Positions 1,279 through 17,924 are shown, numbered from the stretch's first letter. The stretch: DNA of 18,678 nt from an uncultured bacterium (GCA_964010765.1 CAXGMD010000070.1:1-18678); one strand, 5' to 3'. Translations and numbers: made by a program. The notes: generated from the sequence alone by a model not told the origin.

Positions 1279-1725
1279 TCAAATATCCTCGGCAGAGGAC
1301 TCAGCTTGTTGGCGTCGAGTTTGAGCATCCAGGGAATGCCGGACCGAGCCAATAAGGTGCAAATTACTCTTCACCAGTTCAGCATTCAGTTCCAGCAAAT
1401 TCTTGATCTGCTCTTTCAATTCCTTGATCTCTTCCGTCAGACGGGCGTTTAGTTGTCTCTCAGTCCAAGCTACTTCAATCAATTGTTCCAAGCGAGCATC
1501 CGCTTCCTTGGGTAGTTTTGAAATTCGTGACTTTTCCTGTTTTTTTCTTTTCTTGATAGTTGTCTGATAGAGTTCAGACAACTTTTCATAATCTTCTTTT
1601 TTCAGAAAACGCTGATTCCCTTCTCGGGTTGATTCAATTCCATGCAAATTCATTAATTTATAAAGCGTATTTCTGGCACATCCAATCTTTTCTAATGCTT
1701 CGATAACCGGAATTCTTGTTTCCAT
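1279..1725 (-). CDS. Small protein with N-terminal MerR/excisionase-like HTH and C-terminal coiled coil (148 aa)
   Basis: Start moved from 1776 to ATG 1725, which has an AGGAG Shine-Dalgarno (ctcct at 1731-1735). VIEALEKIGCARNTLYKLM...REGNQRFLKKEDYEKL fits HTH plus wing; LTEEIKELKEQIKNLLELNAEL is a heptad repeat. Confidence 0.72.
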   Translation of the reverse strand: METRIPVIEALEKIGCARNTLYKLMNLHGIESTREGNQRFLKKEDYEKLSELYQTTIKKRKKQEKSRISKLPKEADARLEQLIEVAWTERQLNARLTEEIKELKEQIKNLLELNAELVKSNLHLIGSVRHSLDAQTRRQQAESSAEDI

Positions 1726-1890
1726 AAATTCTCCTAGAAGACTGTTGAAATCAGAATCTAAAATTTCATAGCACATATTATGATAGTTATCAAATCATGT
1801 TTATAACAACTGAATTTTAAGTCATGAAATTGAATATCGAAAACTGAACAACTGTATCTGATGGGGGGAATTGGATGGATAAGAAGTAAT

Positions 1891-3190: not shown

Positions 3191-3604
3191 CTACTCCGCT
3201 TCCTCATACCGGCGGATAAATTCTGCAGCTGGAATATCAAAATCTCGCACATGGTGTTCGAACCAAGCCATGTAGTCATATTCAAGAAAGTTCCAAAGTT
3301 GCAGTAAATCTCGCTCCTCCTCCCAGTTTTTTTTGGCTTCTTTGATTGCCTTCAGAGTCTCTGAGTGAGCCTCTACATGCTTTTTAAAGTTGGGACACAT
3401 CACTCTCTTCATACAGGCTTCTTCTTCATTAAAATGATTGAGGACCTGCCCTTCCAAGCGCTGAAGCCATTCAACAATTTGATCGTCATTACTGTTGGGG
3501 AGTGCTCTCATGAAATCATTTAAGATCTCAATTTCTTCTCGATGGAGATCATCAATCACTTCAAGTTGCGTGGACGTACAGTGTTTTGGCTTTGAGCTAA
3601 GCAT
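3191..3604 (-). CDS. Single-domain bacteriohemerythrin (non-haem di-iron protein)
   Basis: Full ligand pattern: DDLH, HFNEEE (HxxxE), HVEAH (HxxxH), HVRDFD (HxxxxD). GGAGA at 3611-3615 abuts ATG 3610 but is well spaced from ATG 3604, so 3604 is preferred. Confidence 0.88.
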   Translation of the reverse strand: MLSSKPKHCTSTQLEVIDDLHREEIEILNDFMRALPNSNDDQIVEWLQRLEGQVLNHFNEEEACMKRVMCPNFKKHVEAHSETLKAIKEAKKNWEEERDLLQLWNFLEYDYMAWFEHHVRDFDIPAAEFIRRYEEAE

Positions 3605-3847
3605 CAACATTCTCCAAAAAGATTCTGCCGGAGATGGTTGCGTTCCAAAAGAAAACCTAGTTGAGTCGAATAATCAAACCAGAGTTCCATTCCCAGGCTC
3701 GCTTTGTTAGAAATTTAGCAGAGATGAGCTAAAGGCAAACCATGATCCAAATCTTTAGTTGGGTTCTAATTCTGAAAATGAGTCCGAGATTACTGTCAAA
3801 CGTAATTAAGGGTTGCTTTTCGTGCCAGCCTCCACTAAAACTGGCTG

Positions 3848-3888
3848 TGGTAGGACCAAATTAAGAATATTTTTGTGTGGCCCAACCA
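3848..3888. promoter_or_regulatory. Tandem FadR/GntR-type operators
   Basis: TGGTAGGACCA (3848-3858, perfect TGGT-N3-ACCA) and TGGCCCAACCA (3878-3888, one mismatch). Both are preceded by TG and followed by AATT/ATTT, with starts 30 bp apart. They match the PdhR/LldR-type consensus, and the downstream operon ends in a FadR-type regulator. Confidence 0.72.
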
Positions 3889-3980
3889 ATTTACTTCAGC
3901 CCGGTTTTTGGAGATGGGAGAGTTCTTCCATCAGGATTCAAGGTCCGGATGATTGCTAATCCTATGATGGGAGACCAAGC

Positions 3981-4952
3981 ATGTCACGCATTCTGATCTC
4001 ACTTTTTGTTGGCTTGAGCCTTTTGACCTCACCTGTTTGGGGGGCTTGGCCAGAGAAACCAATCAAGGTCATTGTTCCATTCAAGGCAGGTGGAACCTCT
4101 GACCAGACCGCAAGAGTTTTCCAAGCTGCTATGAAGGAGAACAACCTTCTTTCCCAGCCTGTCACGATTGTCAACGTAGGTGGACATTACTCGATTGGCT
4201 CTCGGCAAGTCATGGAAGCCAGCCCAGACGGCCATACCTTTCTCTTAATTCACATCGCTTTGATGGGAGGAGAAGGTAGTGGGGCTTTGAACTTTGGCTG
4301 GAGAGACTTTGAACCTGTTGCCGCAACTGGCGAGTTCTGTGTGCTGCCGATGGTCCGCAAAGACTCAGGCATCAACTCTGTTCAGGAACTTCTCAGCGAA
4401 GCCAAAACAAATCCAGATTCATTAATCTTCGGAGCAAACCTCGGCGCAATCAATCATCTCGCAGGAGTCATGCTTCAGGAATTGGTGCCAGGTGCAAAGT
4501 TCCGCTTCGTACAAATTGGTGGAGGAACAGCAAATTACACCGCTTTAACTGGAGCTCAAACCAACGCGACAGTCCTCTCTGGAGCTGAGGTCGTTAAATT
4601 CACCAGAATGCCGGACGGTTCGGAAAATCCCGAAGCTCAAATCAAGCCATTGGCTTACACTGGGGCTGCTCGCTTTGATCAGTTGTCAGATCTACCCACC
4701 ATGAAAGAGTTGGGTTATGACATGGAATTCTGCATCAAGTCATGGTGGTTCGCACCCAAGGGAACTCCTAAGGCAGCAATCGAAGGCTTTGCAAATGCTC
4801 TGGAGGCTTCTACCTCAACGGACCGGTATCAAAAATTCCTAGAAAGTAAAGGGTTTGCCAATCTGTTTTTAGGTGGCAACGATCTTCAGCAAGATCTGCA
4901 GAATACATGGACAGCAATTGAGCCAGTAGCCAAACTAGCCTCAAAAAAATAA
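3981..4952 (+). CDS. tctC: Tripartite tricarboxylate transporter substrate-binding protein (TctC/Bug family)
   Basis: Signal peptide, then WPEKPIKVIVPFKAGGTSD, PDGHT, DFEPVA, PTMKELG, APKGTP; GGAG RBS; adjacent to tctB and tctA. Confidence 0.95.
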   Translation: MSRILISLFVGLSLLTSPVWGAWPEKPIKVIVPFKAGGTSDQTARVFQAAMKENNLLSQPVTIVNVGGHYSIGSRQVMEASPDGHTFLLIHIALMGGEGSGALNFGWRDFEPVAATGEFCVLPMVRKDSGINSVQELLSEAKTNPDSLIFGANLGAINHLAGVMLQELVPGAKFRFVQIGGGTANYTALTGAQTNATVLSGAEVVKFTRMPDGSENPEAQIKPLAYTGAARFDQLSDLPTMKELGYDMEFCIKSWWFAPKGTPKAAIEGFANALEASTSTDRYQKFLESKGFANLFLGGNDLQQDLQNTWTAIEPVAKLASKK

Positions 4953-4957
4953 GTGCT

Positions 4958-4990
4958 ACTCACCACTCTTGTGACTTTGGAGTGGTGAGT
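4958..4990 (+). terminator. Intercistronic stem-loop after tctC (mRNA-stabilising hairpin or leaky terminator)
   Basis: Perfect 11-bp inverted repeat ACTCACCACTC / GAGTGGTGAGT with an 11-nt loop, followed by only a short T run. Confidence 0.65.
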
Positions 4991-5015
4991 TTCGTGATGC
5001 ATTAAAGATATCGAT

Positions 5016-5483
5016 ATGAATCTTCTTCAGCGGTTTGAAGTTTGGGTTTCGTTGTTGGTCATCCTGATCTGCCTAGTTTTTCTCTGGGAATCATGGGATC
5101 TGCCGCCAGGATCTTTTGAACCTTTGGGCTCAGGGCCTGTACCTCAAGCAACTGCATTTATTGTGATTCTTTGTGCTGGGCTGGTGATCTTTAATGCCTT
5201 GAGAAAGCCAGTTCAGCTTTCGGGAGACGAAGAGATCAAAGAACGACCTTCAATCAGTGCTGGTCTAATTATTTCGTTAGCAACTGTTATTTACAGTCTG
5301 ATGCTTCACTTTAGGCTGATGCCTTTCGCTTGGATGACAACCCTCTTTCTGATCATTACGATTTGGAGTCTTGAAAAATTTGAGAAGAAAAAATTTCTTC
5401 CTGCACTAATCACAGCAATCGTGATTGGCTTTGCTAGCGAATACCTTTTCACGGAGGTTTTCATCGTCGACCTACCAACCTGA
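5016..5483 (+). CDS. tctB: Tripartite tricarboxylate transporter small membrane subunit TctB
   Basis: 155 aa, 4-5 hydrophobic segments, LGSGPVP motif, C-terminal YLFTEVFIVDLP; lies between tctC and tctA. Confidence 0.9.
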   Translation: MNLLQRFEVWVSLLVILICLVFLWESWDLPPGSFEPLGSGPVPQATAFIVILCAGLVIFNALRKPVQLSGDEEIKERPSISAGLIISLATVIYSLMLHFRLMPFAWMTTLFLIITIWSLEKFEKKKFLPALITAIVIGFASEYLFTEVFIVDLPT

Positions 5484-5492
5484 CGAGTCGCA

Positions 5493-6989
5493 ATGGATGT
5501 TGAATTACTATTTGCGGCTGCCAGCCAGATCTTAAATCCTTGGCCTTTTTTCTTGCTCTTCATTGGAACCTCACTGGGCATCTTGGTTGGTGCCATCCCT
5601 GGGATGACCGGTGCGATGTTGATTGCACTGACTCTCCCTTTGACTTTCTACATGGATCCCTTCAACGCGATAGTATTGCTTGTAGCGATGTATGTAGGAG
5701 CTATCAGTGGAGGATTAATTACGGCAACACTCCTCAGAATGCCCGGAACCCCAGCTGCTGTGATGACGACGTTTGATGGCTACCCAATGGCCAGAAGTGG
5801 CAAACCAGGTCGCGCATTGGGATTAGGCATTACAGCATCGTTCATTGGTGGATTGATCGCGTGGATCACCCTGGCTACCATCACCAAGCCTCTCTCGATT
5901 TTTGCCACCAAGTTTGGCCCTTTTGAGTATTTCACTCTAATCATGATGGCAATGGTACTAATTGCCTCTGTCAGTGAAGGCTCTTTGGCCAAGGGATTGA
6001 TTTCGGGGTTGCTTGGGATGCTGATTTCGATGCCTGGGGTTGATCCGGCAACAGGAATGCCTCGTCTGACCTTCGATTGGTACATGTTGAATGGGGGTCT
6101 GAAGCTCCTGCCTGTTTTGATCGGGGTCTTTGCCGTGAGCCAGATCATTAAGGATGCCCTCGACATTGGCCAAGTGCCTGAGCGGATAGCGATGAGCAGC
6201 AAGGGCATGCTGATGAGTGCAAAAGATTTCATGGCACAGGGGGTCAACCTGATTCGCTCTTCCTTGATTGGCACTTGGGTAGGAATTCTCCCGGGAATTG
6301 GGGCTTCCATTGGTTCTGTGATTGCCTACACTGCGGCCAAGAATATGTCCAAAACTCCAGAGAAATTTGGGACAGGATCTGAAGAGGGAATCGTGGCTTC
6401 GGAGGCAGCGAATAATGCAACGGTAGGTGGAGCCCTGATCCCCTTGATCGCCATGGGCATTCCAGGAAGTGTCATTGATGCCATTCTAATCGGCGCCTTG
6501 ATGATTCATTCGATTCAACCTGGCCCCACTCTGTTCCTGACAAATGCGGATATTGTCTGGGGAATGATTGCCGCCTGCCTCTTGGCAAATGTGTTGATGT
6601 GGTTACTGATGACAAGCTCCGTTAAATACATTGCTGGATTGATGTATTTGCCCAGAAGCTTCGTTCTTCCTATTGTCATGGTCTTCTGTGTCATCGGTTC
6701 CTTTGCCTTGAACAACACCATGTTTGATGTCTGGGTAATGCTAATCTTCGGAGTGATGGGCTTCCTGATGGAGTGCGCTAAGATTCCTTTGGGTCCTTTC
6801 GTGATAGGGTTTGTCCTCGCACCACTTGCGGAAGAAAAGCTCCGTAGTGGCTTGATGATGACTGCGGGGGATTTCAGTCCTATTTTTACTCGACCACTTC
6901 CACTTTTCTTCACCATTTTAGCCGTGATCCTTCTCCTTTGGCCGATTATCGGTGATTGGATGCGAAAGCGCAGAGCATCTCGCAAATAA
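5493..6989 (+). CDS. tctA: Tripartite tricarboxylate transporter permease TctA
   Basis: GILVGAIPGM, MPGTPAAVMTTFDGYPMA, GILPGIG, EGIVASEAANNATVGGALIPLIAMGIPG; 498 aa polytopic membrane protein. Confidence 0.97.
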   Translation: MDVELLFAAASQILNPWPFFLLFIGTSLGILVGAIPGMTGAMLIALTLPLTFYMDPFNAIVLLVAMYVGAISGGLITATLLRMPGTPAAVMTTFDGYPMARSGKPGRALGLGITASFIGGLIAWITLATITKPLSIFATKFGPFEYFTLIMMAMVLIASVSEGSLAKGLISGLLGMLISMPGVDPATGMPRLTFDWYMLNGGLKLLPVLIGVFAVSQIIKDALDIGQVPERIAMSSKGMLMSAKDFMAQGVNLIRSSLIGTWVGILPGIGASIGSVIAYTAAKNMSKTPEKFGTGSEEGIVASEAANNATVGGALIPLIAMGIPGSVIDAILIGALMIHSIQPGPTLFLTNADIVWGMIAACLLANVLMWLLMTSSVKYIAGLMYLPRSFVLPIVMVFCVIGSFALNNTMFDVWVMLIFGVMGFLMECAKIPLGPFVIGFVLAPLAEEKLRSGLMMTAGDFSPIFTRPLPLFFTILAVILLLWPIIGDWMRKRRASRK

Positions 6990-7021
6990 TTCTTCAGCGT
7001 GAGTAGAGGTCTCATAAAAAA

Positions 7022-8350
7022 ATGACAGCTAACCATTTTCAGTCTCCTGCTTTTCCTGCAATCAGATTTCCTCACTTGGCTGAAGTTAAATTGCCACCAC
7101 TTCATAGAGTGAGGATCAGACATCCCCAAGCACCTGCCCTTCAGAATCTAGAGAAAATGGTGGCCGATGTTCTGAAAAACTGCCAGAAACTCCAGCAAAT
7201 CCCAAGAGGATCTGAGGTTGCCATTGCTGTTGGGAGTCGAGGAATTGCTAAGATTGATACCATCACCAGAACTGTGGTGAGTCAGCTAAAGGTCTGGAAC
7301 CTCAAACCGTTCATTGTCCCAGCCATGGGGAGTCATGGAGGAGGTACTGATGATGGACAGCAAGAAGTACTGAAAAAGTTGGGAATTGACGAAGAGAGCA
7401 TGGGGTGTGAAATCCGCTCTTCCATGAAAACAGTGGACTACGGGTCGATCGGTGATGGAATCCATTGTCATTTCGATGCCAATGCAGCTGGGGCTGCGGG
7501 GATTATCCTTGTAAATCGAGTTAAAGCCCACACGAGCTTTCCTAGAGAAATTGAAAGTGGGTTGATCAAGCTGATCGCAGTGGGTCTAGGGAAAGCCGAA
7601 GGAGCTCGCTCTGTTCACAGAATTGGCCCTAAAGGATTACAAGAGATATTACCTAAGCTTGCTGAGAGAGCGATTCTCTCTGCTCCGATCAAGGCAGGCA
7701 TAGCACTCATTGAAAATGCCAATCGGGAAATTTGTCATATTGAACCTGTGGAGCCGGAGGCACTTTTTGAAACAGAGAAAAGACTTCTGCGCAAAGCCAA
7801 AAGCCTGATGCCCAGTTTACCATTTGATCAGCTGGATGCATTGATCGTTGAGGAGTTTGGCAAGGAGATTTCTGGAGCTGGGCTAGATCCGCACATTTCA
7901 GGTAGAACAGATATTCGAGGTGTGGAAAATCCCTCTACGCCCTTCATCCACAAAATCGCTGCTCTGAGAATGACAGCAGCCACCAATCGAAACGGGATGG
8001 GCACTGGCATGGTGGACTTCCTGCCACAGCCAACAGCCAACAAACTTGATCTCCATTCAATGTACATGAATGCAGTTTCATCCACTGTGCTGGAAAAAGC
8101 CTTCTTACCCATCGTTCTTGCCAATGATCAGGAAGTCATTCGGGCTCTAGTAGCCACTTGCTGGAAGCCAGAAATAAATTTGATTCGACTGGCCCAGATT
8201 CGCTCCACGCTTCACCTCAACGAAATTCTACTGACCACACCACTCTTTCAGGAAGCCCAATCAAAAGGTGCCATTGCTTCCTTTGAAGATCAGACAGAAT
8301 CTTTCAAATTTGACTCATCCGGCCAACTCTTGACCAAAGTTCAGTGCTAA
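7022..8350 (+). CDS. LarA-like (lactate racemase N-terminal domain/DUF2088-DUF362-type) putative hydroxy-acid racemase/epimerase
   Basis: AIAVGSRGI, PFIVPAMGSHGG, NRVKAHTSF, ESGLIKLIAVGLGK...SVH, GKEISGAGLD. His/His/Lys/His spacing resembles the LarA active site. Family recognised by eye; substrate unknown. Confidence 0.78.
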   Translation: MTANHFQSPAFPAIRFPHLAEVKLPPLHRVRIRHPQAPALQNLEKMVADVLKNCQKLQQIPRGSEVAIAVGSRGIAKIDTITRTVVSQLKVWNLKPFIVPAMGSHGGGTDDGQQEVLKKLGIDEESMGCEIRSSMKTVDYGSIGDGIHCHFDANAAGAAGIILVNRVKAHTSFPREIESGLIKLIAVGLGKAEGARSVHRIGPKGLQEILPKLAERAILSAPIKAGIALIENANREICHIEPVEPEALFETEKRLLRKAKSLMPSLPFDQLDALIVEEFGKEISGAGLDPHISGRTDIRGVENPSTPFIHKIAALRMTAATNRNGMGTGMVDFLPQPTANKLDLHSMYMNAVSSTVLEKAFLPIVLANDQEVIRALVATCWKPEINLIRLAQIRSTLHLNEILLTTPLFQEAQSKGAIASFEDQTESFKFDSSGQLLTKVQC

Positions 8351-8376
8351 TAAACCAACACTCTTCCTAGGCAGTT

Positions 8377-9936
8377 ATGAGCAGACCAAACATTTTGATC
8401 ATCACCACCGACCAGCACCGCGGTGATTGTTATGGATTCGAGGGACGTAAAGTCAAAACACCCCATATCGATCAATTAGCCGCAGAGGGGACACGATTTC
8501 AACACTGCATCACCCCAAGCGCGATGTGCCAGCCAGCTCGTGCAAGTATGTTAACGGGCCTCTACCCACTCACCCACGGAGTGGTGGATAATGGGATCGA
8601 TCTTCCTTCTGAGACAGGAGATGCAGGCTTCGCTGGTCAGCTTGGTCGCAACGGCTACCACACTGCATTTATTGGCAAAGCTCATTTCTCCTCTTACAAC
8701 ACCTTCTCTCCGACAGGTACCCCAGAGTGCCACCAAAGCTCTCCAAATTTCGCAGATGACTGGACTGGGCCCTACATGGGATTTGAAGAAGCCCAGTTGC
8801 TGGTGCTGGGTCATGAACTAAAAGAGATGGCCAGCGCCCCCAAAGGTCTCCACTACGAACGCTGGCTACGGAGAGATGGCCACGGTCAGAAAAAACTGGA
8901 CCTCTATGGAACCAAGCTACCACCGGACGTTGGCGCCATCCAGACCTGGAACTCGGCAATGCCTGTCGCCTGGCATCATTCCAGTTGGATCGGAGACCGA
9001 GTTATCGATTATCTGGGCCGACGTAAAGAAGGAAAGCCTTTCTGTCTCTGGGCTTCCTTTTCGGATCCCCACATGCCCTTTGACTGTCCGGAACCATGGT
9101 CACGACTTCACCATCCCGAAGAAGTGGACTTACCTCCCTTCCGAACGAGGGAACTGCACAAACGTCCCTGGTGGCACAAAGCCTATGTGGAAGATCGCTC
9201 CGTCGATCCAGAATTGGATGTAGCCATCTATGATCATGAGCAATCCCTCCATCGTTTGCCAAAACGCAATGGTCGAGCCAGGAACTATAATGACACAGAA
9301 TTTCAGCTCAGACATACGATCGCCAACTACTACGGTATGATTTCATTGATTGATCACAACGTGGGCCGAATTCTCAACGCACTCGATGAGCAGGGATTAG
9401 CAGAGAACACCGTAGTACTGTTTACCTCAGACCATGGGGATTGGCTGGGTGATCATGGGATGATGCTGAAGGGCCCGATGTTCTATGAAGGACTACTCAG
9501 AGTAGCGATGATCCTTAGGGGACCAGGAATTCCTGCAGGACAGATTTCACAAGAACCTGTTTCAAATACTGACATTGCTGCTTCAGCCTTGGATTGGGCC
9601 GGTGTCAGACCTGAACTGGCTCCTCATGGCCAAAGCTTGAAAACATTAATTGATCAACCTTCCGCAACTCGAGACTTTGCCTACGGGGAATGGGATCTCA
9701 ATCCCCAAAATTGGGGGTTGGACCTCAAATTGCGGGTTGTGCGAACAACTCGTCACAAGATGACCATGGAAATGAACTCAGGTGCTGGGGAACTCTATGA
9801 CCTGCAAGAAGATCCTCATGAAACCACCAACCTGTTTGACCAAGAGAGCAAATTGAAAAAAGAATTTGAGGACATGATTCGCTCTAGACCGAATGATCAA
9901 ATCCGTGAAGCATTGGTACCTTCTGGCCTGCATTGA
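8377..9936 (+). CDS. Cys-type (formylglycine-dependent) sulfatase, cytoplasmic
   Basis: PNILIITTDQH, CQPARASMLTG (CxPxR), GKAH, DPH, SDHGD, MLKG, ELYDLQEDPHE; no signal peptide. Confidence 0.95.
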   Translation: MSRPNILIITTDQHRGDCYGFEGRKVKTPHIDQLAAEGTRFQHCITPSAMCQPARASMLTGLYPLTHGVVDNGIDLPSETGDAGFAGQLGRNGYHTAFIGKAHFSSYNTFSPTGTPECHQSSPNFADDWTGPYMGFEEAQLLVLGHELKEMASAPKGLHYERWLRRDGHGQKKLDLYGTKLPPDVGAIQTWNSAMPVAWHHSSWIGDRVIDYLGRRKEGKPFCLWASFSDPHMPFDCPEPWSRLHHPEEVDLPPFRTRELHKRPWWHKAYVEDRSVDPELDVAIYDHEQSLHRLPKRNGRARNYNDTEFQLRHTIANYYGMISLIDHNVGRILNALDEQGLAENTVVLFTSDHGDWLGDHGMMLKGPMFYEGLLRVAMILRGPGIPAGQISQEPVSNTDIAASALDWAGVRPELAPHGQSLKTLIDQPSATRDFAYGEWDLNPQNWGLDLKLRVVRTTRHKMTMEMNSGAGELYDLQEDPHETTNLFDQESKLKKEFEDMIRSRPNDQIREALVPSGLH

Positions 9937-9944
9937 TGGGTTGA

Positions 9945-10643
9945 ATGCAGATACCCAAATCTCTCCCCAACCGACGCTACAACCAGATCACTCGACAGCT
10001 GATTGAGTCCATCCAGGCCGGGGAGTATCCTGTCGGGGACAAGCTGCCCCCAGAGAGAGAACTCGCTGAAAAGTTGAACGTCAGTCGCACAACCCTGCGC
10101 GAAGCTTTTATTGCTTTGGAGTTGATGCGGTATGTGGACATCCGCATTGGTTCAGGGATTTATGTGTTGCCGGAAGCAGCGCGTGAGGTCGAAAACAGTC
10201 CGAAGTTACAGCATGACCCAGGTCCTTCAGATCAACTCGAAATCCGCAGATTGATCGAGGGCCATTTGGCCTACAAAGCTGCGCTCAATGCGGAGGAAAA
10301 GGACATTCAGAAATTGCAGGAGTTGCTTGAGTTGATGGATCAACACAAGAGGGATGCTGCCGAGTTTGAGAAATTTGATCAGCAGTTTCATCTAGCCATT
10401 GCCAAGGCTTCGGGGAATGTCTTGGGACCCAATTTGGTTAAATGGCTTTGGAACTTGAGAGAAGCAGAAATGTTCTTCAGTTGGTTTTCAAAAACACGAT
10501 CTGAGAGTTACCGCCAAAGAACCGTTCGCGATCATGAAAAAATCCTCAAAGGCATTTCGATGCGTATGCCGGATGTAGCCATGACAGCCATGCAGCATCA
10601 CATCGATGTCATTCGTGAAAGGTTCTTTGACCAAAACATTTGA
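9945..10643 (+). CDS. GntR-family, FadR-subfamily transcriptional regulator (wHTH + FCD)
   Basis: GDKLPPERELAEKLNVSRTTLREA, EIRRLIE, DQQFHLAIAKASGN, DHEKI, MQHH. Confidence 0.96.
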   Translation: MQIPKSLPNRRYNQITRQLIESIQAGEYPVGDKLPPERELAEKLNVSRTTLREAFIALELMRYVDIRIGSGIYVLPEAAREVENSPKLQHDPGPSDQLEIRRLIEGHLAYKAALNAEEKDIQKLQELLELMDQHKRDAAEFEKFDQQFHLAIAKASGNVLGPNLVKWLWNLREAEMFFSWFSKTRSESYRQRTVRDHEKILKGISMRMPDVAMTAMQHHIDVIRERFFDQNI

Positions 10644-10675
10644 TTTGCAAATTATCTGGGCCCCTCAATCATTCA

Positions 10676-12139
10676 TTACATTGGGCCAATGCATTCTGGG
10701 CCTAGATCAATGGCTTGCATTGAGGCGTCAAAACTTTTGATGATCATCTGTAGTTTAATCTCTGAATGATCTTGGTTGTCCCAAAGGTTGTCAAACTCCC
10801 CAGGATCCTGATCCAAATCGTAGAGTTCCCCAAGACCGATTCCATGATACATCACTAGCTTGTAGCGTTCATCCCTCAGCATGGTCGCCCGCGAGTGATA
10901 GGGTTGATTGAGGGCGTCATAGAACTCGCTACGAATATGGGGCTTGTGAAAATCTGGTTTTGCCGAACCTGAGATTATTGGCCAGAGAGATTTCCCCTGC
11001 ATGTAATTGGGCTGTTCGATCCCGCACACCTCCAGCAAGGTCGGTGTGATGTCCATCAGTTCCACCAGTGCGTCACTCTGCAGATTGCTCTTTACTTGCC
11101 CTGGCCATGAAAAAATCAATGGAACGCGTACCAGCCCATCAAAGAATCGGCATCCTTTTTCGATCAGCCCATGGTCTCCAAGAGATTCCCCATGATCTGT
11201 GGCGTAGATGATCAGTGTATTCTCCAGTTGATTCGTGGCTTCGAGGTAATCCACTAAACGACCGAATTGATCATCGATCAGTTTAATCATTGCATAATAA
11301 GCAGCCTTGAGGGTCCAGGCGTCCTTGGCTCCAGGTGATGGCTCCGCTCCCCGAACGCTGTCTGCAGTTGGTGTTCTTGGTAGGATTGGATCACAAATAT
11401 CCAGATCCTCTGGTCGTCGAACCTTCGATTGGAAGTCGATGGGCTCCAGAATTTTCTGCTGAACCAGATCTGACTCACGAAAGAGGGGATCGGGCATCTG
11501 CTTGGGATCAAAGAGATCACGATACTGCTGAGGTGGGTTGAAGGGAGGATGAGGATCATAGACATTGATGCTGAGAAACCAAGGTCCTTGACGCTTTTCC
11601 TGAATGAAATCAATAGCACGATCGGTTCCCCAGGTGGTTTGGTGAAACTCCGCTGGAATTCCCTGAATATCCTTCACCAACTCTTTTAGTACTCCCCCTT
11701 TTTGGTGGACCCAATCGGCATAGTCATGACCTCCCTGCCAGTCATCACGAGGCGCATGACTCCACTTGAAGAAACGGTATCCATCATCGACTCTCGGTTC
11801 CACACGCTGGAAAGAACTAGCCAAGTGTAGTTTACCCACTAGGCCGCAGTCATAGCCCTGTTCACTAAGAATTTTTGATATCAGGGGGTATTGATCTGCA
11901 TAGGTAAAATTGCCATTACGCGGGGCTCTTATCGCATTTGGATAACAACCCGTAAGGAAGCTTGCACGACTTGGAGTACAGATCGGAGACTGGCAATAGT
12001 TCTTCGTGAAAGCAGTACCTCGATGTACCAATCGATCAATGTTTGGTGTGATCACATGAGGATTGTTCAGGGCACCAATCGTGTCGTAGCGTTGCTGATC
12101 AGTGCAGTACCAGAGGATATTTGGTAAATCTTTTTTCAT
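10676..12139 (-). CDS. Second Cys-type sulfatase, cytoplasmic (487 aa)
   Basis: Start moved from 12211 to ATG 12139 (MKKDLPNILWYCTDQQR), which removes the overlap with the divergent gene. CTPSRASFLTG, GKLH, DPHPP, TDHGE, IEKG, ELYDLDQDPGE. Confidence 0.94.
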   Translation of the reverse strand: MKKDLPNILWYCTDQQRYDTIGALNNPHVITPNIDRLVHRGTAFTKNYCQSPICTPSRASFLTGCYPNAIRAPRNGNFTYADQYPLISKILSEQGYDCGLVGKLHLASSFQRVEPRVDDGYRFFKWSHAPRDDWQGGHDYADWVHQKGGVLKELVKDIQGIPAEFHQTTWGTDRAIDFIQEKRQGPWFLSINVYDPHPPFNPPQQYRDLFDPKQMPDPLFRESDLVQQKILEPIDFQSKVRRPEDLDICDPILPRTPTADSVRGAEPSPGAKDAWTLKAAYYAMIKLIDDQFGRLVDYLEATNQLENTLIIYATDHGESLGDHGLIEKGCRFFDGLVRVPLIFSWPGQVKSNLQSDALVELMDITPTLLEVCGIEQPNYMQGKSLWPIISGSAKPDFHKPHIRSEFYDALNQPYHSRATMLRDERYKLVMYHGIGLGELYDLDQDPGEFDNLWDNQDHSEIKLQMIIKSFDASMQAIDLGPECIGPM

Positions 12140-12172
12140 TTCAAACTCTTGCTGGGATTTTGGAAAAACCGA

Positions 12173-12200
12173 ATTATAGACGGATAAGATGAAAATACAA
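12173..12200 (-). promoter_or_regulatory. Candidate sigma70 promoter for the second sulfatase
   Basis: Minus strand TTGTAT (12200-12195), 16-nt spacer, TATAAT (12178-12173), 33 nt upstream of ATG 12139. Confidence 0.45.
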
Positions 12201-13289
12201 CGCGTTGTCACGAAACATCTTGCTTTCGAGCTGGATGATCGCTTTTGGAATTCTCAGCAACGCTGGGCAAAGAAAGACATTGTTCTGGTTTTTATCGAAA
12301 CGGATAATGGACTGATTGGGGTTGGAGAAGGCTGGACGCCGGGGGCATCGCCAAAGGCTTTGATGCAAACCATCGAAGAGGATGTTGGCCCAAGATTGAT
12401 TGGACAAGACCCCCGCTACCACACAAAAATTTTTGCAGAGGTTTGGAAAACAACTGCCTTGAATGCACGAAGAGGGATTCTCTCGATTGCTCTCAGTTCT
12501 GTTGATCTCGCTCTGTGGGATTTAGTTGGAAAAGCCTTGCAGACTCCAGTTTACCAATTACTGGGAGCCTTCACAGATCAGGTACCTTGCTATGCCAGTG
12601 CTGGCTTGTACGGGAAAGGTAAGGATGAAACTGCCCTTGCGGAAGAGATGCAAGGCTACCTGGCGCAGGGGTTCAGTGATGTGAAGATGAAGGTTGGTGG
12701 CGTTCCCATAGAAGAAGACGTCAAGCGTGTCAAGGCAGTTAGAGGTGCAATTGGACCAAGAGCACGTCTGATGGTTGATGCCAACTACACCCTGAATGTT
12801 CCAAAATCACTGAAGATGGCGCAGGCTTTTGAGCCTTACGAAATCTACTGGCTCGAAGCTCCTGTTTCACCAGATGATGTGAGTGGCCAAGCAAAGGTCA
12901 ATGCTCTCAGCCCAATTCCTGTCTGTGGAAACGAAACCGAGACTGGGATTGACCGATTTCGGGAGTTGATCACTCAGCGAGCAGTCGAGTTTGTACAATT
13001 TGACATCGCAGCCTGTGGAGGTATCTCCGAGGGACGCAGGATCGCAGACCTTGCTGCAGCGTTTCATCTTCCCTGCACCCTTCACGCTTCTTCAACTGGG
13101 ATTCTTCTCGCCGCAAGCCTGCACCTGGCAGCAAGTCTGCCTAATCTCGACTCAGTTGAATACCACATGTTTCACCAGTGGCTTTTCGACAAATGTCCGT
13201 CCAGCGCCTTCAAACCTAACGCTGGGGGATTCGTTCGTCCACCAGACGGACCAGGATTTGGCCTGGAGATTCATTATGATGATCTATGA
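12189..13289 (+). CDS. Mandelate racemase/muconate lactonizing enzyme family (enolase superfamily), probable acid-sugar dehydratase or cycloisomerase
   Basis: DLALWDLVGK, KMK (KxK), metal ligands D (MVDAN), E (WLEAP), E (GNET), Asp/His dyad (QFD...TLH), PDGPGFG. Confidence 0.93.
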   Translation: MKIQRVVTKHLAFELDDRFWNSQQRWAKKDIVLVFIETDNGLIGVGEGWTPGASPKALMQTIEEDVGPRLIGQDPRYHTKIFAEVWKTTALNARRGILSIALSSVDLALWDLVGKALQTPVYQLLGAFTDQVPCYASAGLYGKGKDETALAEEMQGYLAQGFSDVKMKVGGVPIEEDVKRVKAVRGAIGPRARLMVDANYTLNVPKSLKMAQAFEPYEIYWLEAPVSPDDVSGQAKVNALSPIPVCGNETETGIDRFRELITQRAVEFVQFDIAACGGISEGRRIADLAAAFHLPCTLHASSTGILLAASLHLAASLPNLDSVEYHMFHQWLFDKCPSSAFKPNAGGFVRPPDGPGFGLEIHYDDL

Positions 13290-13304
13290 CCTGCAACCTC
13301 TCAC

Positions 13305-14483
13305 TCACTTGACAACGACACGGTCAATTTTTGTTTTTTCAATCAAATCCCAGTCATAGTCCACCCCCAAACCCGGAGACTGGGACACTTCCACCATTCC
13401 ATTGGCGTTGATACAGTCCAACTCATCTGAGTAGCCATTGCGATAAATTGGCAGTTGCCAGGGATTTGGGGCAGCAGGATGGACCAGATTGACTTCATAG
13501 TAGTTACTGCGGGAGAGGGCGGCCATCAGTTGACGCATTGCAGGACCACAAGAATGTACCTCCACATCAATTCCCATTGCTTCAGCAGCAATCGCAGCCT
13601 TGTAGCAACCGGTGATGCCTCCATCATAGTCAGGATCAACCCGACCAAAATCCGTCGCCCCAGAGATCATCAAATCTGTATGTGTCTCTACAGTGCGGAC
13701 ATGCTCGCCAATCATGATCGGGGTTTGAACCTTTTGCTTGAGAAGCTTATGGCCTGAAAAGCTGAGACCTCCATCTGCGAAGGGATCTTCGTACCAGAGT
13801 AGGTTGTACTCATCACAAACTTGGCCAACACGAATCGCATCGGTTAGAGTTTTTAGATGGCAAGAGGCGTCATACATCACTTCCATTTTTCCACTAACAC
13901 GGTCGGCTACAGCTCTAATCATCTTCGACTCTCTTTTCGGATCTCCTTCTTTCCACCCGTGCATCTTGAAGCCTGGATAGCCAAGCTCCAAACAGCTTTC
14001 TGCAAAATCAGCATAGGCTTCTGGGTGGCTCAACCCACCTTGCTGCTCATCCCCATGAATTGTGCTCGCATACGCAGGTAATTGCCAACGATGACCTCCC
14101 AGCATTTGGGCAATCGAGAGTCCAGAGCATTTGCCAGCTAGATCCCAAAGTGCAATGTCCAAAGCCCCAATACCAGCTTCGCCGACATGTTTGGTGAGTC
14201 TCCGCATCGTTTGATAGTGTCTCTCCCGCTCCAAGCCTGGTTTGTTGAGGAGAGCGTGAGCCAAGGCAACACCTGCAGACATTAAGACTGTGGCCCGAGA
14301 CTTTGGAGGAACATACTCTCCAACTACCCCCTCATCCGTTAAAATTCTGACACTAAATCGTTTTTGGGGTGTACCTACTCCAGGCTCGTACCAAACTCCA
14401 AATCCCGAAGGATCGGCTGCAATGTTGGGGATACTAACCTCAAAGAGTGTAAATTCGATTTCTTGAATTCTAGGACTTTGCAT
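13305..14483 (-). CDS. Second mandelate racemase/muconate lactonizing family enzyme (KxH variant)
   Basis: DIALWDLAGK, GFKMHGW, MYDAS, WYEDP, IGEH, RVD, EVH, PGLGVDYD. Confidence 0.92.
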   Translation of the reverse strand: MQSPRIQEIEFTLFEVSIPNIAADPSGFGVWYEPGVGTPQKRFSVRILTDEGVVGEYVPPKSRATVLMSAGVALAHALLNKPGLERERHYQTMRRLTKHVGEAGIGALDIALWDLAGKCSGLSIAQMLGGHRWQLPAYASTIHGDEQQGGLSHPEAYADFAESCLELGYPGFKMHGWKEGDPKRESKMIRAVADRVSGKMEVMYDASCHLKTLTDAIRVGQVCDEYNLLWYEDPFADGGLSFSGHKLLKQKVQTPIMIGEHVRTVETHTDLMISGATDFGRVDPDYDGGITGCYKAAIAAEAMGIDVEVHSCGPAMRQLMAALSRSNYYEVNLVHPAAPNPWQLPIYRNGYSDELDCINANGMVEVSQSPGLGVDYDWDLIEKTKIDRVVVK

Positions 14484-14651: not shown

Positions 14652-15059
14652 ATGAATCAAGAAGATTTACAGAAACTTAAAGAAACCAACAGTTGCCCCA
14701 CAGGAGATTTTGAGGGAGCCGATCTATCCGGCATGGATTTGCGCCGAGCAAATCTAAGTGGCGCAGCTTTGAAAAAAGCTAATCTCAGGAATGCAGATCT
14801 GACCGAAGCAAATTTGAGCGTAGCTGACCTCACTCACGCAAATTTACAAGAAGCGAAGATTCGCCAAGCTAACCTTGAGGGTACTTTACTGGTTAATGCA
14901 GACTTACGCCACGCTAATCTGGGCAGTGCCAACTTGATGTTCGCTGATCTCAGTAAAGCAGATTTATACAAGGCCAACTTAACCAACGCCTCCATTTCAG
15001 AGGCAAAATTTTGTAGTACGACTCTACCTGATGGGAAGATTAGCAACCGGGATTGTTGA
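14652..15059 (+). CDS. Pentapeptide repeat protein (Rfr fold)
   Basis: About 21 uninterrupted A(D/N)Lxx repeats from GDFEG to AKFCS, with C-terminal cap FCSTTLPDG...C. Confidence 0.95.
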   Translation: MNQEDLQKLKETNSCPTGDFEGADLSGMDLRRANLSGAALKKANLRNADLTEANLSVADLTHANLQEAKIRQANLEGTLLVNADLRHANLGSANLMFADLSKADLYKANLTNASISEAKFCSTTLPDGKISNRDC

Positions 15060-15124
15060 ATAATTTTCTCCTTGATGAACTGAAAACTCTCTAAACATTA
15101 ACCTGTAAACTTACCGGAAAAAAC

Positions 15125-16222
15125 ATGACCCCAGTCAAGGTTGGTATCATTGGATGTGGCAATATCTTTGATGCTTATCTAAACGCCTCCAAAAATTTCC
15201 CGATCTTGAACATTGCTAGTTGTGCTGACCTGAAAAGCGAACGGGCACAGGCAAAAGCGGATCAATGGGGATTGCAAGTTCAATCCATTGATTCCCTCCT
15301 CCAAGATCAATCTATTGAGATTATCCTGAATTTGACGACTCCTGATTCTCATATCTCAGTTGCCAAACAAGTTCTAGAGAGCGGCAAGCACGTTTATACT
15401 GAAAAACCCCTTGGTTTGAATGTCAACGAAGGAATTGAATTGCTTGCTCTCGCAAAAGATCGAGGATTACGAGTTGGTTCTGCTCCAGATACTTTTCTTG
15501 GTGGTTCGCATCAGAAAACACGACAATTGCTGGATTCTGGGAAGATTGGTGATCCCCTGGCCTGCACCGCTTTTATGATGGTTCCTGGTCATGAGTTATG
15601 GCATCCAGATCCTGACTTTTACTATCTCCCTGGAGGAGGCCCTATGCTGGACATGGGGCCTTACTACCTAACGGCTTTCATCAATCTCTTGGGTCCAGTT
15701 GCTCAGGTCACAGGCTTTGGTAAAGCGTTTCGAACTTCTAGAACAATTGCCTCTGGAGCCAGAGCTGGTCAGACAGTACCTGTCAAGACGCCTACTCATC
15801 TGAGTGGTGTTGCTGAATTTGTGAATGGGGCCCTGCTGACAATCACGATGAGTTTTGATGTATGGCAGCATACTCACCTACCGATGGAACTCTATGGAAC
15901 AGAAGGTTCGATGCTGATTCCGGATCCCAATCGGTTTGATGGTGAAGTCAAGTGGAGTGAAGGCAAAGCAGACTGGAACTCTGCTACGGTTGAGTTTCCC
16001 TATGCGGATGATAACTATCGAAGTATTGGTTTAGCTGACCTGGCCCAAGCGATCAGGGCCGAAAGGCCACATCGAGCTAATGGCCAGTTGGGTTTACATG
16101 TGCTTGAGATCATGACAGGCTTTCTCAAAGCCGCTGAAACCGGCGCCAGCACAAGCATGCAGACAACCTGTGAACGGCCTGCATTAATGAAGACGGATTT
16201 ACCCTTTGGACAACTTGACTAA
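15125..16222 (+). CDS. Gfo/Idh/MocA family NAD(P)-dependent oxidoreductase
   Basis: VGIIGCGNI, GKHVYTEKP, GSAPDTFLG, GGGPMLDMGPYY, YGTEG. Confidence 0.95.
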   Translation: MTPVKVGIIGCGNIFDAYLNASKNFPILNIASCADLKSERAQAKADQWGLQVQSIDSLLQDQSIEIILNLTTPDSHISVAKQVLESGKHVYTEKPLGLNVNEGIELLALAKDRGLRVGSAPDTFLGGSHQKTRQLLDSGKIGDPLACTAFMMVPGHELWHPDPDFYYLPGGGPMLDMGPYYLTAFINLLGPVAQVTGFGKAFRTSRTIASGARAGQTVPVKTPTHLSGVAEFVNGALLTITMSFDVWQHTHLPMELYGTEGSMLIPDPNRFDGEVKWSEGKADWNSATVEFPYADDNYRSIGLADLAQAIRAERPHRANGQLGLHVLEIMTGFLKAAETGASTSMQTTCERPALMKTDLPFGQLD

Positions 16223-16230
16223 GAGGACAG

Positions 16231-16878
16231 ATGGCACAGAAAAAAGCGTTGATTGCTTGGGGAGGATGGGAAGGACATACACCCCAGGAGAGCACAGAAA
16301 TCACAAAAGTGATTCTTGAAAATAACCACTTCGCTGTTGACGTGGTTGAGGGGACCGAAGCCTTTCGGGATCCAGATTTGTCTCGCTACAACCTGGTCGT
16401 CCCCGTAATTACAATGTCAACTATTGAAAAAGAAGAAGTTGAAAATCTTTGCCAGACTGTTGAAAAGGGTACTGGCTTGGCTGGCTTCCATGGTTGCATG
16501 TGTGACTCCTTCCGCAACAGCGTTGACTATCAATTCATGACTGGAGGTCAGTGGGTTGCTCATCCAGGCAATATTATTGATTTTTCAGTAGAAATCCTCC
16601 CTAACGAAGATCCAATCACAGAAGGCATTCAAGATTTCCCTTACAAATCTGAGCAGTACTTCATGCATGTGGACCCATCGAATGAGGTACTGGCGACAAC
16701 CACCTTCACGGGTGAGCATTGTTCCTGGGTCAAAGGGGTAAAAATGCCCGTAGTATGGAAAAGAGTGCATGGAGTAGGACGAGTCTTCTACAGTGCCTTG
16801 GGCCATGTTGCAGAGGAATTTAAAGTCCAGGAGATGGCAACGATTTTTGAACGGGGAATGCTGTGGGCAGCACGCTAG
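16231..16878 (+). CDS. ThuA-like domain protein (class I glutamine amidotransferase-like fold)
   Basis: WGGWEGH, GTGLAGFHG, GGQWVAHP, SEQY, MPVVW, GRVFYSALGH; GAGG RBS; starts 8 nt after the oxidoreductase stop. Confidence 0.9.
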   Translation: MAQKKALIAWGGWEGHTPQESTEITKVILENNHFAVDVVEGTEAFRDPDLSRYNLVVPVITMSTIEKEEVENLCQTVEKGTGLAGFHGCMCDSFRNSVDYQFMTGGQWVAHPGNIIDFSVEILPNEDPITEGIQDFPYKSEQYFMHVDPSNEVLATTTFTGEHCSWVKGVKMPVVWKRVHGVGRVFYSALGHVAEEFKVQEMATIFERGMLWAAR

Positions 16879-16899
16879 TTGTTCACTGACTGAGGATCA

Positions 16900-17679: not shown

Positions 17680-17924
17680 GGTTTTGGGACCTCAAGAAGT
17701 TGATTGAATTTTAGGGAAACAAACTTCAGACAGTCTAAAATTTATCAGTTCGATCTGTTATTCATTCTGGTAAGCACCTCAATCGATTATGAACTTTTGC
17801 AAAATGATGATGAAAATCCGATTTTCTAAAACAAAAAAACAGCTTAAAATCGTCATTGAAAAAAATTTGTAAATGCAGCTTTGAAAGCAATTCATTGAGA
17901 AACAAAAATACACAATTAAATTCT

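Follow-up and report, generated by a model that had tools for sequence, protein, structure and literature searches.

We identified in a marine SAR324 bacterium a gene cluster that, on balance, appears to encode the uptake and breakdown of an anionic compound, most probably a sugar acid or 2-hydroxy acid that is O-sulfated. The cluster occupies positions 3848..14483 of GCA_964010765.1 CAXGMD010000070.1:1-18678, and by the window we mean this whole analyzed stretch of 18,678 nt. It comprises a TTT importer, a LarA homologue, two sulfatases, a regulator, and two enolase-superfamily enzymes, laid out as follows:

3848..3858, no strand: candidate FadR-type operator box 1, near-palindrome TGGT-N3-ACCA, exact consensus match
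3878..3889, no strand: candidate box 2, repeating box 1 in inverted, degenerate form
3981..4952, + strand: tctC, periplasmic solute-binding protein of the TTT importer (Pfam PF03401, 70 bits)
5016..5483, + strand: tctB, small membrane subunit (Pfam PF07331)
5493..6989, + strand: tctA, large membrane subunit (Pfam PF01970, 477 bits)
7022..8350, + strand: LarA homologue, predicted nickel-pincer cofactor isomerase, "group 22" edge clade (NCBIfam NF052515)
8377..9936, + strand: sulfatase 1, Cys-type, without signal peptide (Pfam PF00884, 158 bits; CQPAR)
9945..10643, + strand: gntR, GntR-family regulator with FCD domain, FadR subfamily (Pfam PF00392, PF07729)
10676..12139, - strand: sulfatase 2, Cys-type, without signal peptide (Pfam PF00884, 154 bits; CTPSR)
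12189..13289, + strand: MR1, enolase superfamily, mandelate-racemase subgroup (Pfam MR_MLE_N+C)
13305..14483, - strand: MR2, second enolase-superfamily enzyme (Pfam MR_MLE_N+C)

Searches of Pfam and NCBIfam returned every family that the first-pass annotation had assigned (TctC, TctB, and TctA, two sulfatases, GntR with FCD, two MR_MLE_N+C proteins, and the LarA homologue), and its ORF calls and strands held as well. From tctC to the regulator gene, all genes lie on the + strand and are separated by the short gaps it had reported (63, 9, 32, 26, and 8 nt); gntR is the final gene of this run. On its 3' side follow sulfatase 2 (-), MR1 (+), and MR2 (-). Since the strands alternate, the neighborhood has at least four transcription units. 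A single operon is possible for tctC to gntR only; sulfatase 2, MR1, and MR2 are separate units, and with strands arranged in this way, their co-regulation with the tctC operon is an assumption.

The association of importer and sulfatases extends well beyond the genus. A synteny search had been suggested for TctC, a LarA-like protein, and a sulfatase, and in all eight loci found outside the genus (L002, L165, L166, L016, L013/L170, L191, L198, and L199), orthologues of the window's TctC, 52-80% identical to it, adjoin signal-less Cys-type sulfatases. The hosts are Alphaproteobacteria and one Desulfocapsaceae MAG, and TctA of the related clusters shows 65-85% identity. The LarA part of the expected linkage stood in six of the eight loci, where a LarA homologue lies within about 12 kb, and failed in two, near which none is present; at E 1e-100, the window's LarA homologue was not found anywhere in the genomes of these two. 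In a ninth locus, L007, the sequence breaks off before tctC and reads tctBA-sulfatase-LarAH-sulfatase-MR. Viewed from the LarA side, 12 of 123 LarA-homologue loci carry both TctA and a sulfatase, and these 12 homologues fall into a 10-member clade (SH-like support 100) and a separate pair. An MR-type or other enolase-superfamily gene is within reach in seven of the eight TctC-orthologue loci, across two other phyla. The gene set as first proposed thus shrinks to a core of TTT importer, sulfatases (two to five per cluster), and an enolase-type enzyme, with the LarA homologue frequent, not universal. Sulfatase 1, which has no orthologue in related TTT clusters, the GntR regulator, and MR2 fall outside this core. 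Other clusters have regulators of the LysR type, sulfatases of three further types, and a UxaA-like dehydratase split into an SAF small subunit and a GD_AH large subunit. In other lineages, the cluster is accompanied by genes that mature the cofactors of its two unusual enzymes: an FGE gene lies inside L002, L165, and L166, and larC-larE-larB lies inside L165 and L166, while the cluster of the anaerobic Desulfocapsaceae carries an anaerobic sulfatase maturase instead (491 bits, cut-off 349).

The SAR324 cluster itself is a mosaic, since sulfatase 1 lacks TTT-linked orthologues and since sulfatases 1 and 2 accompany an Opp-type ABC importer in another genome, G492, whose ABC operon includes a sulfatase 1 orthologue with 57% identity. 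It was probably acquired horizontally. A stronger form of this idea, which we consider unlikely, is that sulfatase 2, MR1, MR2, and the tctCBA-larA-sulfatase-gntR operon share no substrate, each working in its own pathway, and came together by chance or co-transfer. The alternating strands, the partial overlap of the window's cluster with the others, and the ABC operon of G492 all fit this explanation. Among the window's sulfatases and MR enzymes, only sulfatase 2 and MR1 have orthologues in other clusters, but these recur elsewhere: sulfatase 2 orthologues (48-58% identity) occur in L002, L166, L199, and L189, MR1 orthologues (49% identity) occur in L016 and L199, and in L199 both adjoin the TctC orthologue. 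For MR2, the MAG G492 has an orthologue (62% identity) roughly 2 kb away from its TTT/sulfatase block. The pairing of sulfatase and enolase-type genes in seven of eight loci from two other phyla likewise argues for a common substrate.

Neither sulfatase has a signal peptide, as had been claimed from the first reading; the conserved N-terminal D-Q motif already begins at residues 10-13 in both, which leaves no space for one. For sulfatase 2, this presupposes the ATG start at 12139 seen in its orthologues, as the listed GTG start at 12211 would make the protein 24 residues longer and overlap MR1. The C-x-P-x-R motif is CQPAR at residue 51 in sulfatase 1 and CTPSR at residue 54 in sulfatase 2, and all 19 cluster sulfatases compared have it at residues 45-71 and have no signal peptide. 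The window's genome contains eight FGE-domain matches, a domain also found in other enzymes, and no anaerobic sulfatase maturase over the cut-off. Neither sulfatase reached an NCBIfam equivalog cut-off. Among PDB entries, sulfatase 1 best matches the exo-2S iota-carrageenan sulfatase 6pt4 (E 4e-44), and the solved relatives of both include the phosphonate monoester hydrolases 2vqr, 2w8s, and 4upk (E 1e-35 to 1e-41). With such hydrolases among the nearest solved relatives, leaving groups other than sulfate are possible. These sulfatase-fold enzymes might then hydrolyze phosphonate monoesters or phosphodiesters, and what is imported might be an acid with a phosphorus ester in place of sulfate, an explanation further suggested by matches to the NCBIfam PehA family, a "phosphoric/sulfuric ester hydrolase," that reach 184 and 219 bits where the cut-off is 900. 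However, named sulfatases score equally well or better, a cluster can hold as many as five paralogues, and related clusters include dedicated sulfatase maturases, although phosphonate and phosphodiester hydrolases also use formylglycine. We give a phosphorus ester only a slim chance.

MR1 and MR2 both carry the signature of the mandelate-racemase subgroup, with MR_MLE N- and C-terminal domains, three acidic metal ligands, a base, and a D/H pair. In MR2, the residues, placed by motif order only, are K173-x-H175, D205, E232, E260, D283, and H310. Its top PDB matches, 1rvk and 4hcd (E 1.5e-38), belong to an Agrobacterium enolase that we take to be galactarate dehydratase III and that shares its catalytic set. 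In MR1, the base motif is K-x-K rather than K-x-H, and the residues, assigned by the numbering of the Agrobacterium galactarolactone cycloisomerase AtGCI (4ggb/4hpn) in the available part of PMC5698469, are K166-x-K168, D197, E223, E249, D272, and H299; the K-x-K, D, E, E, and H set given there for AtGCI is retained. AtGCI is the second-best solved relative of MR1 (4ggb, E 1e-54), just behind 5olc (E 8e-55), which the same source identifies as DauB, a 3,6-anhydro-D-galactonate cycloisomerase. At E-values of 1e-54 for MR1 and 1e-38 for MR2, the likeness to the Agrobacterium enzymes is at the family level only. MR1 is predicted to be a dehydratase or cycloisomerase of an acid sugar.

The nearest relatives of sulfatase 1 and MR1 together suggest a narrower form of the sulfated-acid reading, in which the substrate is a red-algal galactan product, oxidized 3,6-anhydro-D-galactose 2-sulfate from iota-carrageenan. 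Sulfatase 1 would take off the 2-sulfate, and MR1 would be the anhydrogalactonate cycloisomerase. In addition to the matches to 6pt4 and DauB, the salt-marsh and estuary labels of RNA runs containing the locus are in keeping with this substrate. Both similarities are remote, though, with unrelated sulfatases and the galactarolactone cycloisomerase following at nearly equal E-values. In addition, Pfam and NCBIfam searches found no dauA, dauC, dauD, glycoside hydrolase, or carrageenase family in the window, the other TTT clusters are without sulfatase 1, and the known pathway requires a C2 epimerase at no step. We regard carrageenan as an improbable source, about on a par with the phosphorus ester.

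The consecutive tctC, tctB, and tctA genes encode a complete three-component TTT importer. The same TctCBA architecture is found in the sulfolactate transporter SlcHFG and in the galactarate/glucarate transporter TctABC of Halomonas, both on record in the available portion of PMC5812351, which offer ligand precedents for the window's importer in the form of a sulfur-bearing compound and a sugar diacid. Read directly from the sequence, the N-terminus of TctC is a hydrophobic signal-like segment. The protein is remote from all solved TTT binding proteins, the closest being BugD (E 5e-29). It is very doubtful that the substrate is a C-sulfonate such as sulfolactate, with an SlcHFG-like TTT, the LarA homologue as sulfolactate racemase, a UxaA-like enzyme as sulfo-lyase, and the sulfatases as bystanders: sulfolactate is a 2-hydroxy acid with TTT import on record, and the SAF and GD_AH subunits of other clusters are arranged as in sulfolactate sulfo-lyase, but the window has no GD_AH gene, S1 sulfatases are not known to cleave C-S bonds, and the partners that stay with the importer most constantly are sulfatases, two to five of them, with a maturase of their own.

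The LarA homologue scores 454.3 bits against NCBIfam NF052515 (NPN isomerase group 22; cut-off 400). By sequence only, it has no Pfam match at E 0.01, no PDB match, and an hhalign probability of 0.2%. An AlphaFold2 model (pLDDT 88.9, pTM 0.85) retrieved LarA-family entries at all of Foldseek ranks 1-18 (E 4e-11 to 1.5e-7, TM 0.41-0.56), and as modeled, the protein keeps the two-domain LarA fold. R73, H105, H170, K183, and H199 are invariant in all 18 aligned relatives. H105, H170, K183, H199, and R73 correspond to the two catalytic histidines, cofactor-tethering lysine, nickel-binding histidine, and arginine of LarA (H108, H174, K184, H200, and R75), as matched by motif comparison with the group-22 rows in dataset S2 of PMC7583248 and not by structural superposition. 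The fold, as seen in the Foldseek matches, and the five key residues, by motif, are those of the LarA family described in that paper and of the D-gluconate 2-epimerases GntE (groups 19 and 20). The protein is presumed to be a 2-hydroxy-acid epimerase. Other SAR324 copies score 418-538 bits against NF052515, yet they are only 32-39% identical to the window's homologue, which by these comparisons lies at the edge of the family. Tables S1 and S3 of PMC7583248 list group 22 as "unknown function," and the gene context in table S1, which includes neither a sulfatase nor a TTT, comprises an SDR, an IlvD/Edd dehydratase, a TRAP transporter, and sugar kinases. The window's homologue differs from the group as tabulated there in falling in a separate clade and in its sulfatase and TTT context. 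Among residues specific to the sulfatase-linked clade, we found no extra arginine or lysine suggestive of a sulfate site. The larB, larC, and larE genes of the window's genome all score over their cut-offs and lie next to each other on the same strand of contig C25. They could also serve another LarA, a canonical one encoded on contig C11.

The gntR product combines a GntR winged helix (PF00392, 67.5 bits) with an FCD effector domain (PF07729, 84.7 bits), and its top NCBIfam matches, UxuR and ExuR, both score far under cut-off. The FadR-type boxes reported ahead of tctC are present, with box 1 exactly matching a consensus that we take to be T-x-GT-N3-AC-x-A. By this consensus alone, the whole window has four matches against 2.9 expected, which is not above chance. 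Both boxes are kept in all six same-genus genomes, across which box 1 varies at two letters only (one at its 5' edge and one in the spacer) and positions 3880-3889 of box 2 do not change. Metatranscriptome contigs from four runs span the locus, covering 27-30 of 30 bins; the runs are labeled salt-marsh and estuary. One contig (3879-7126) passes through tctCBA into the LarA gene, and region 3400-3793 has nothing in three of the four runs. Contigs from runs X4 and X7 both begin at 3879, within box 2 and about 21-31 nt downstream of box 1, with adapter letters before 3879 in X4, which hints, though weakly, that a transcript starts there. Counting against a transcript reading, contigs in these libraries also span convergent and divergent gene ends.

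For a sulfated 2-hydroxy or sugar acid, we propose that TctC would bind the substrate in the periplasm and TctAB would import it. The two cytoplasmic formylglycine sulfatases, activated by one of the FGE-domain proteins that the genome encodes, would strip the sulfate esters. The LarA homologue, with a nickel-pincer cofactor supplied by larBCE elsewhere in the genome, would invert C2 and so provide the right epimer to the enolase-type enzymes, and MR1, MR2, or both may then remove the proton from C2 and expel the substituent at C3, yielding a 2-keto-3-deoxy acid. The FCD-type GntR protein may act at the two boxes to repress the tctC promoter, with a pathway metabolite as the ligand that relieves repression. 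The first-pass annotation had likewise envisaged import of an intact sulfated acid followed by epimerization, desulfation, and dehydration; families, motifs, co-conservation, maturation genes in the clusters of other lineages, and presence in RNA libraries support it in part, and the substrate class, the reactions and their order, and the regulation are what we infer. It had also known of no characterized pathway with this combination, and our search of the literature found none that combines a TTT importer, a LarA homologue, sulfatases, and enolase enzymes.

Described catabolism of sulfated marine carbohydrates generally involves exported sulfatases in polysaccharide utilization loci, and the sulfatases of the Zobellia galactanivorans carrageenan system are reportedly secreted. 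In contrast, two to five cytoplasmic sulfatases are here tied to a small-molecule carboxylate importer and acid-sugar enzymes, with sulfatase maturases and, in some genomes, nickel-pincer cofactor genes in the same cluster. As described in the available part of PMC5698469, carrageenan catabolism in Zobellia uses S1 sulfatases and DauA-D from a polysaccharide utilization locus. Both systems join sulfatases with an enolase-superfamily enzyme, which in Zobellia makes a 2-keto-3-deoxy acid. Going by that account, the Zobellia system has glycoside hydrolases and outer-membrane uptake, whereas the TTT importer, LarA homologue, and signal-less sulfatases, with no glycoside hydrolase found, set the window apart. 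More tentatively, the TTT/multi-sulfatase/enolase module might spread horizontally and serve an unrecognized class of substrate, a free sugar acid, possibly with several O-sulfates, that occurs dissolved in coastal water as a metabolite. The LarA clade would then act as a (sulfo)aldonate or uronate C2/C5 epimerase. If true, an unrecognized pool of small sulfated acids would serve as a carbon source for SAR324, Paracoccaceae and other Alphaproteobacteria, and Desulfocapsaceae. The clusters provide a testable context for LarA group 22 and for a set of cytosolic sulfatases, and if the reading of a sulfated sugar acid and a LarA epimerase is true, group 22 would gain its first physiological role, and nickel-pincer enzymes would for the first time be linked to formylglycine enzymes.

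The window carries a cluster made up of a TTT importer (tctCBA), a LarA homologue, two sulfatases, a GntR-type regulator and two enolase-superfamily genes of the mandelate-racemase subgroup (MR1 and MR2), laid out as follows.

3981-4952, + strand: tctC (ORF and Pfam)
5016-5483, + strand: tctB (ORF and Pfam)
5493-6989, + strand: tctA (ORF and Pfam)
7022-8350, + strand: LarA homologue (NCBIfam group 22)
8377-9936, + strand: sulfatase 1 (Pfam), CQPAR at residue 51
9945-10643, + strand: GntR/FCD regulator gene, gntR (Pfam)
Start taken at ATG 12139, - strand: sulfatase 2, downstream of gntR, CTPSR at residue 54
After sulfatase 2, + strand: MR1
After MR1, - strand: MR2

ORF calling reproduced the reading frames and gaps of the first-pass annotation (63, 9, 32, 26 and 8 nt from tctC to gntR), and Pfam and NCBIfam confirmed each of its family assignments. 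The ATG chosen for sulfatase 2 is the one its orthologues have; the listed GTG at 12211 would overlap MR1. By their motifs both sulfatases are Cys-type, and the earlier view that neither has a signal peptide holds, as both open directly with the conserved N-terminal motif and none fits. The N-terminus of TctC, judged by its sequence, is signal-like. The window is one complete contig of a genome of 3.86 Mb in 266 contigs, in which profile searches found 12 sulfatase and 8 FGE-domain matches and no anaerobic sulfatase maturase above cut-off. The window as a whole drew no Rfam match at E 0.1. Two ORFs, at 1279-1776 (- strand, 165 aa) and 17856-18677 (+ strand, at least 274 aa, continuing off the contig), matched no Pfam or NCBIfam family. 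Downstream, at 14652-17679, Pfam identifies a pentapeptide-repeat protein, a Gfo/Idh/MocA oxidoreductase, ThuA and a xylose-isomerase-like TIM-barrel gene; this group looks like a module of the sugar 3-dehydrogenase type. It is syntenic within the genus, and the related clusters in other lineages lack it.

Against NCBIfam 'NPN isomerase group 22' (cut-off 400) the LarA homologue reaches 454 bits; it had no Pfam match even at E 0.01 and no sequence match in the PDB, so that sequence-only links to solved LarA structures failed. Its membership of the LarA family was settled by fold: with the AlphaFold2 model (pLDDT 88.9) as query, Foldseek ranks 1-18 are all LarA-family structures. Residues R73, H105, H170, K183 and H199 are invariant in 18/18 aligned relatives and correspond by motif to R75, H108, H174, K184 and H200 of LarA in the group-22 rows of dataset S2 of PMC7583248. 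Supplement tables S1 and S3 of that paper enter group 22 as 'unknown function', and the neighbours it gives for the group are SDR, IlvD/Edd dehydratase, TRAP transporter and sugar kinase genes, with no sulfatase or TTT among them; in its abstract and section 6, a 2024 follow-up (PMC11770544) likewise gives the group no function. The genome also has a second, canonical LarA, and larB, larC and larE lie adjacent on one strand of another contig.

To see how far this arrangement extends, 123 loci with a LarA homologue were scanned with profiles built for this analysis, the reach being the DNA fetched per locus. TctA and a sulfatase were both present at 12 of them: the window, five congeners, an Afifella MAG (L002), a Halovulum MAG (L007), two Halovulum-family genomes (L165, L166), a Desulfocapsaceae MAG (L016) and a Geminicoccaceae MAG (L013). 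A FastTree phylogeny, with a midpoint root only, covered 43 of 115 rows (all 31 with at least 43% identity and every seventh of the remaining 84, leaving out 72). Ten of the 12 sulfatase-linked homologues formed one clade (SH-like support 100), and those of L013 and L016 paired (support 93) in a neighbouring fork that is unresolved. Around the homologues of the sister groups lie genes for IlvD/Edd, Gfo, GMC and aldehyde dehydrogenase, or a varied set, and no sulfatase. Nine positions are specific to the sulfatase-linked clade and include no added Arg or Lys; they are silent on whether the enzyme acts on the sulfated or the desulfated acid.

Within the SAR324 phylum, a group-22 match over the cut-off was found in 31/88 genomes, some with two or three copies. 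Only five of 37 fetched phylum loci share the window's neighbour genes, all of them from its own genus and with the entire contig syntenic. The other 32 copies (L111-L138, L144-L146 and L099, from the genome set G001-G087) are 32-39% identical to the window's homologue and, apart from weak stray matches, have none of these genes nearby. A metagenome scan returned 14 loci, all 83-100% identical and so of the same genus, and no new lineages. Relatives 87% identical to the LarA homologue are named at NCBI as 'SAR324 cluster bacterium' or 'Deltaproteobacteria bacterium' MAGs, and the closest homologues beyond the phylum are alphaproteobacterial; proteins at 56-57% identity carry the names Oceaniglobus trochenteri and Halovulum sp. 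GXIMD14794.

Conservation was also assessed from the importer. Among 401 sampled Halovulum-family genomes, a LarA homologue with an E-value of 1e-100 or lower occurs in six, half of them of the sulfatase type and half of the IlvD type, and a TctC of 61% identity or more in four. At two of those four loci, L198 and L199, sulfatases and MR genes adjoin the importer and a LarA homologue is lacking; GD_AH is present at L198 too, and at L199 a 58% orthologue of sulfatase 2 adjoins a 49% orthologue of MR1. In a Rhodospirillales MAG (G492), tctCBA is 79-85% identical to the window's, with flanking sulfatases and GD_AH adjoining tctA; an MR2 orthologue (62%) and a LarA homologue lie about 2 kb and 9-10 kb, respectively, from this block. 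The proposal that importer, LarA homologue and sulfatase are conserved together thus stands for the sulfatases, present at 8/8 TctC-orthologue loci outside the genus, and stands less firmly for the LarA homologue, present at 6/8. An MR-type gene occurs at 7/8. These counts place the importer, sulfatases and an enolase-type enzyme in the stable core, to which a LarA homologue is often added.

The related clusters run in the order LysR, sulfatase A (- strand), tctCBA, sulfatase B, sometimes sulfatase C, LarA homologue and sulfatase D, followed by an MR-type enolase and then the SAF small and GD_AH (UxaA-like) large subunits. L165 and L166 extend into larC, larE and larB (larE of L165 scores 221 bits, above its cut-off of 150). 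FGE genes are found in L002, L165 and L166, and L016, from an anaerobic lineage, has an anaerobic sulfatase maturase in place of FGE (491 bits against 349), together with UxuA, a 2-hydroxy-acid dehydrogenase and a gluconolactonase-like gene. Each of the 19 cluster sulfatases that were compared carries C-x-P-x-R within residues 45-71, and none has a signal peptide. Orthology divides them into four types, A to D: the window's sulfatase 2 belongs to type C (48-49% identical), and its sulfatase 1 is at most 33% identical to any type.

The most likely pathway, as read from these genes, would begin with import of the substrate by the TTT system and removal of sulfate esters in the cytoplasm; the LarA homologue would invert C2, MR1 and/or MR2 would dehydrate the product to a 2-keto-3-deoxy acid, and a GntR repressor would sense a metabolite and control the pathway. 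We infer in what order the steps run, how many sulfate groups are involved and which acid is used. The reading as an acid sugar draws on the full catalytic set of MR1 by sequence (K166-x-K168, D197, E223, E249, H299), on the nearest solved relatives (DauB and galactarolactone cycloisomerase for MR1, 1rvk/4hcd for MR2), on the UxaA-like, UxuA and lactonase genes of sister clusters, on the regulator's best NCBIfam matches (UxuR and ExuR, both sub-threshold), and on TTT precedents for sulfolactate and galactarate/glucarate noted in PMC5812351. Another pairing of LarA with TTT is group 5, the malate racemase Mar1: in table S1 of PMC7583248, COG2721 altronate-dehydratase-family genes occur in all of its contexts and TctC and TctA in 26%, and the authors themselves doubt the natural substrate. 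For the sulfate-ester reading, the grounds are the sulfatase motifs and the maturases that other lineages encode in cis. We set aside a role of the sulfatases as sulfur scavengers: the regulator belongs to a carbon-catabolic type, and the RNA runs carry salt marsh and estuary labels, seawater in such places being rich in sulfate.

Upstream of tctC, an exact FadR-type box (3848-3858) and a degenerate inverted copy (3878-3889), noted in the first-pass annotation as FadR boxes, are both kept in 6/6 same-genus genomes. The roughly 100 nt from box 2 to the tctC start codon (3879-3980) are almost invariant in these six and better conserved than the sequence preceding box 1. This leader has no Rfam match, and 3879-3990 shows no more folding than shuffled sequence does (z -0.4). 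An inverted-repeat search of 3611-3980 (seed 6) found nothing, the boxes being too short for it, and scans for promoters and terminators were uninformative, giving 9 and 5 sites where shuffles gave 10.7 and 11.7. A second near-palindrome (3788-3807, ATTAC-N8-GTAAT core) precedes the RNA-contig start by some 70 nt, in the space that separates the hemerythrin gene from tctC. It is conserved in 6/6 same-genus genomes at all but two variable positions and may be a site of another regulator.

Seventeen RNA-labelled runs, with salt marsh (2018) or estuary (2022) labels and 16 study codes that may represent only two campaigns, contain 45-65% of sampled words from 3900-13800. In contigs of four runs at 95% identity or more, 27-30 of 30 bins are covered; 3400-3793 is bare in three of the four. 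Contigs of runs X4 and X7 share a start at 3879, preceded by adapter letters in X4, and one X7 contig spans 3879-7126, covering tctCBA and entering the LarA gene, although contigs prove neither a start nor a single transcript. Contigs from three runs bridge the junction of sulfatase 1 and gntR. Among the 32 contig pieces listed, with 241 more beyond the listing, none crosses the LarA/sulfatase 1 junction with at least 31 nt on each side; gaps in the cover of a single run do not count as evidence. Since some contigs run across convergent and divergent gene ends as well, DNA carry-over is possible, as are overlapping transcripts.

The identities of TctC and TctA to the Afifella MAG (80% and 81%), together with the midpoint-rooted LarA tree, suggest that the SAR324 genus may have acquired the cluster horizontally. 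In G492, orthologues of sulfatase 1 (57%) and sulfatase 2 (52%) lie inside an ABC importer operon (contig C3, 8181-18289) of Opp/Dpp type, with SBP_bac_5, two permeases and two ATPases, adjoined by a LysR gene and a third sulfatase. The pair thus serves another importer too, and the window's cluster is a mosaic. The operon is a second kind of importer paired with cytoplasmic sulfatases.

The first-pass annotation knew of no described pathway with this enzyme combination, and we found none in the full texts open to search, about 1.7 million PubMed Central articles and most subscription papers being beyond reach. No searchable full text joined LarA and nickel-pincer with sulfatase, or sulfatase with TTT and mandelate racemase, and none paired any two of cytoplasmic sulfatase, intracellular sulfatase, sulfated monosaccharide and TctC. 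Matches for sulfatase with lactate racemase were unrelated by title or opening of the abstract, and papers joining SAR324 with sulfatase are, by title, ecological surveys. The enzyme families are all already known. What is new is their combination, in the roles proposed here: cytoplasmic catabolism by multiple sulfatases, fed by a carboxylate importer and joined to a nickel-pincer epimerase.
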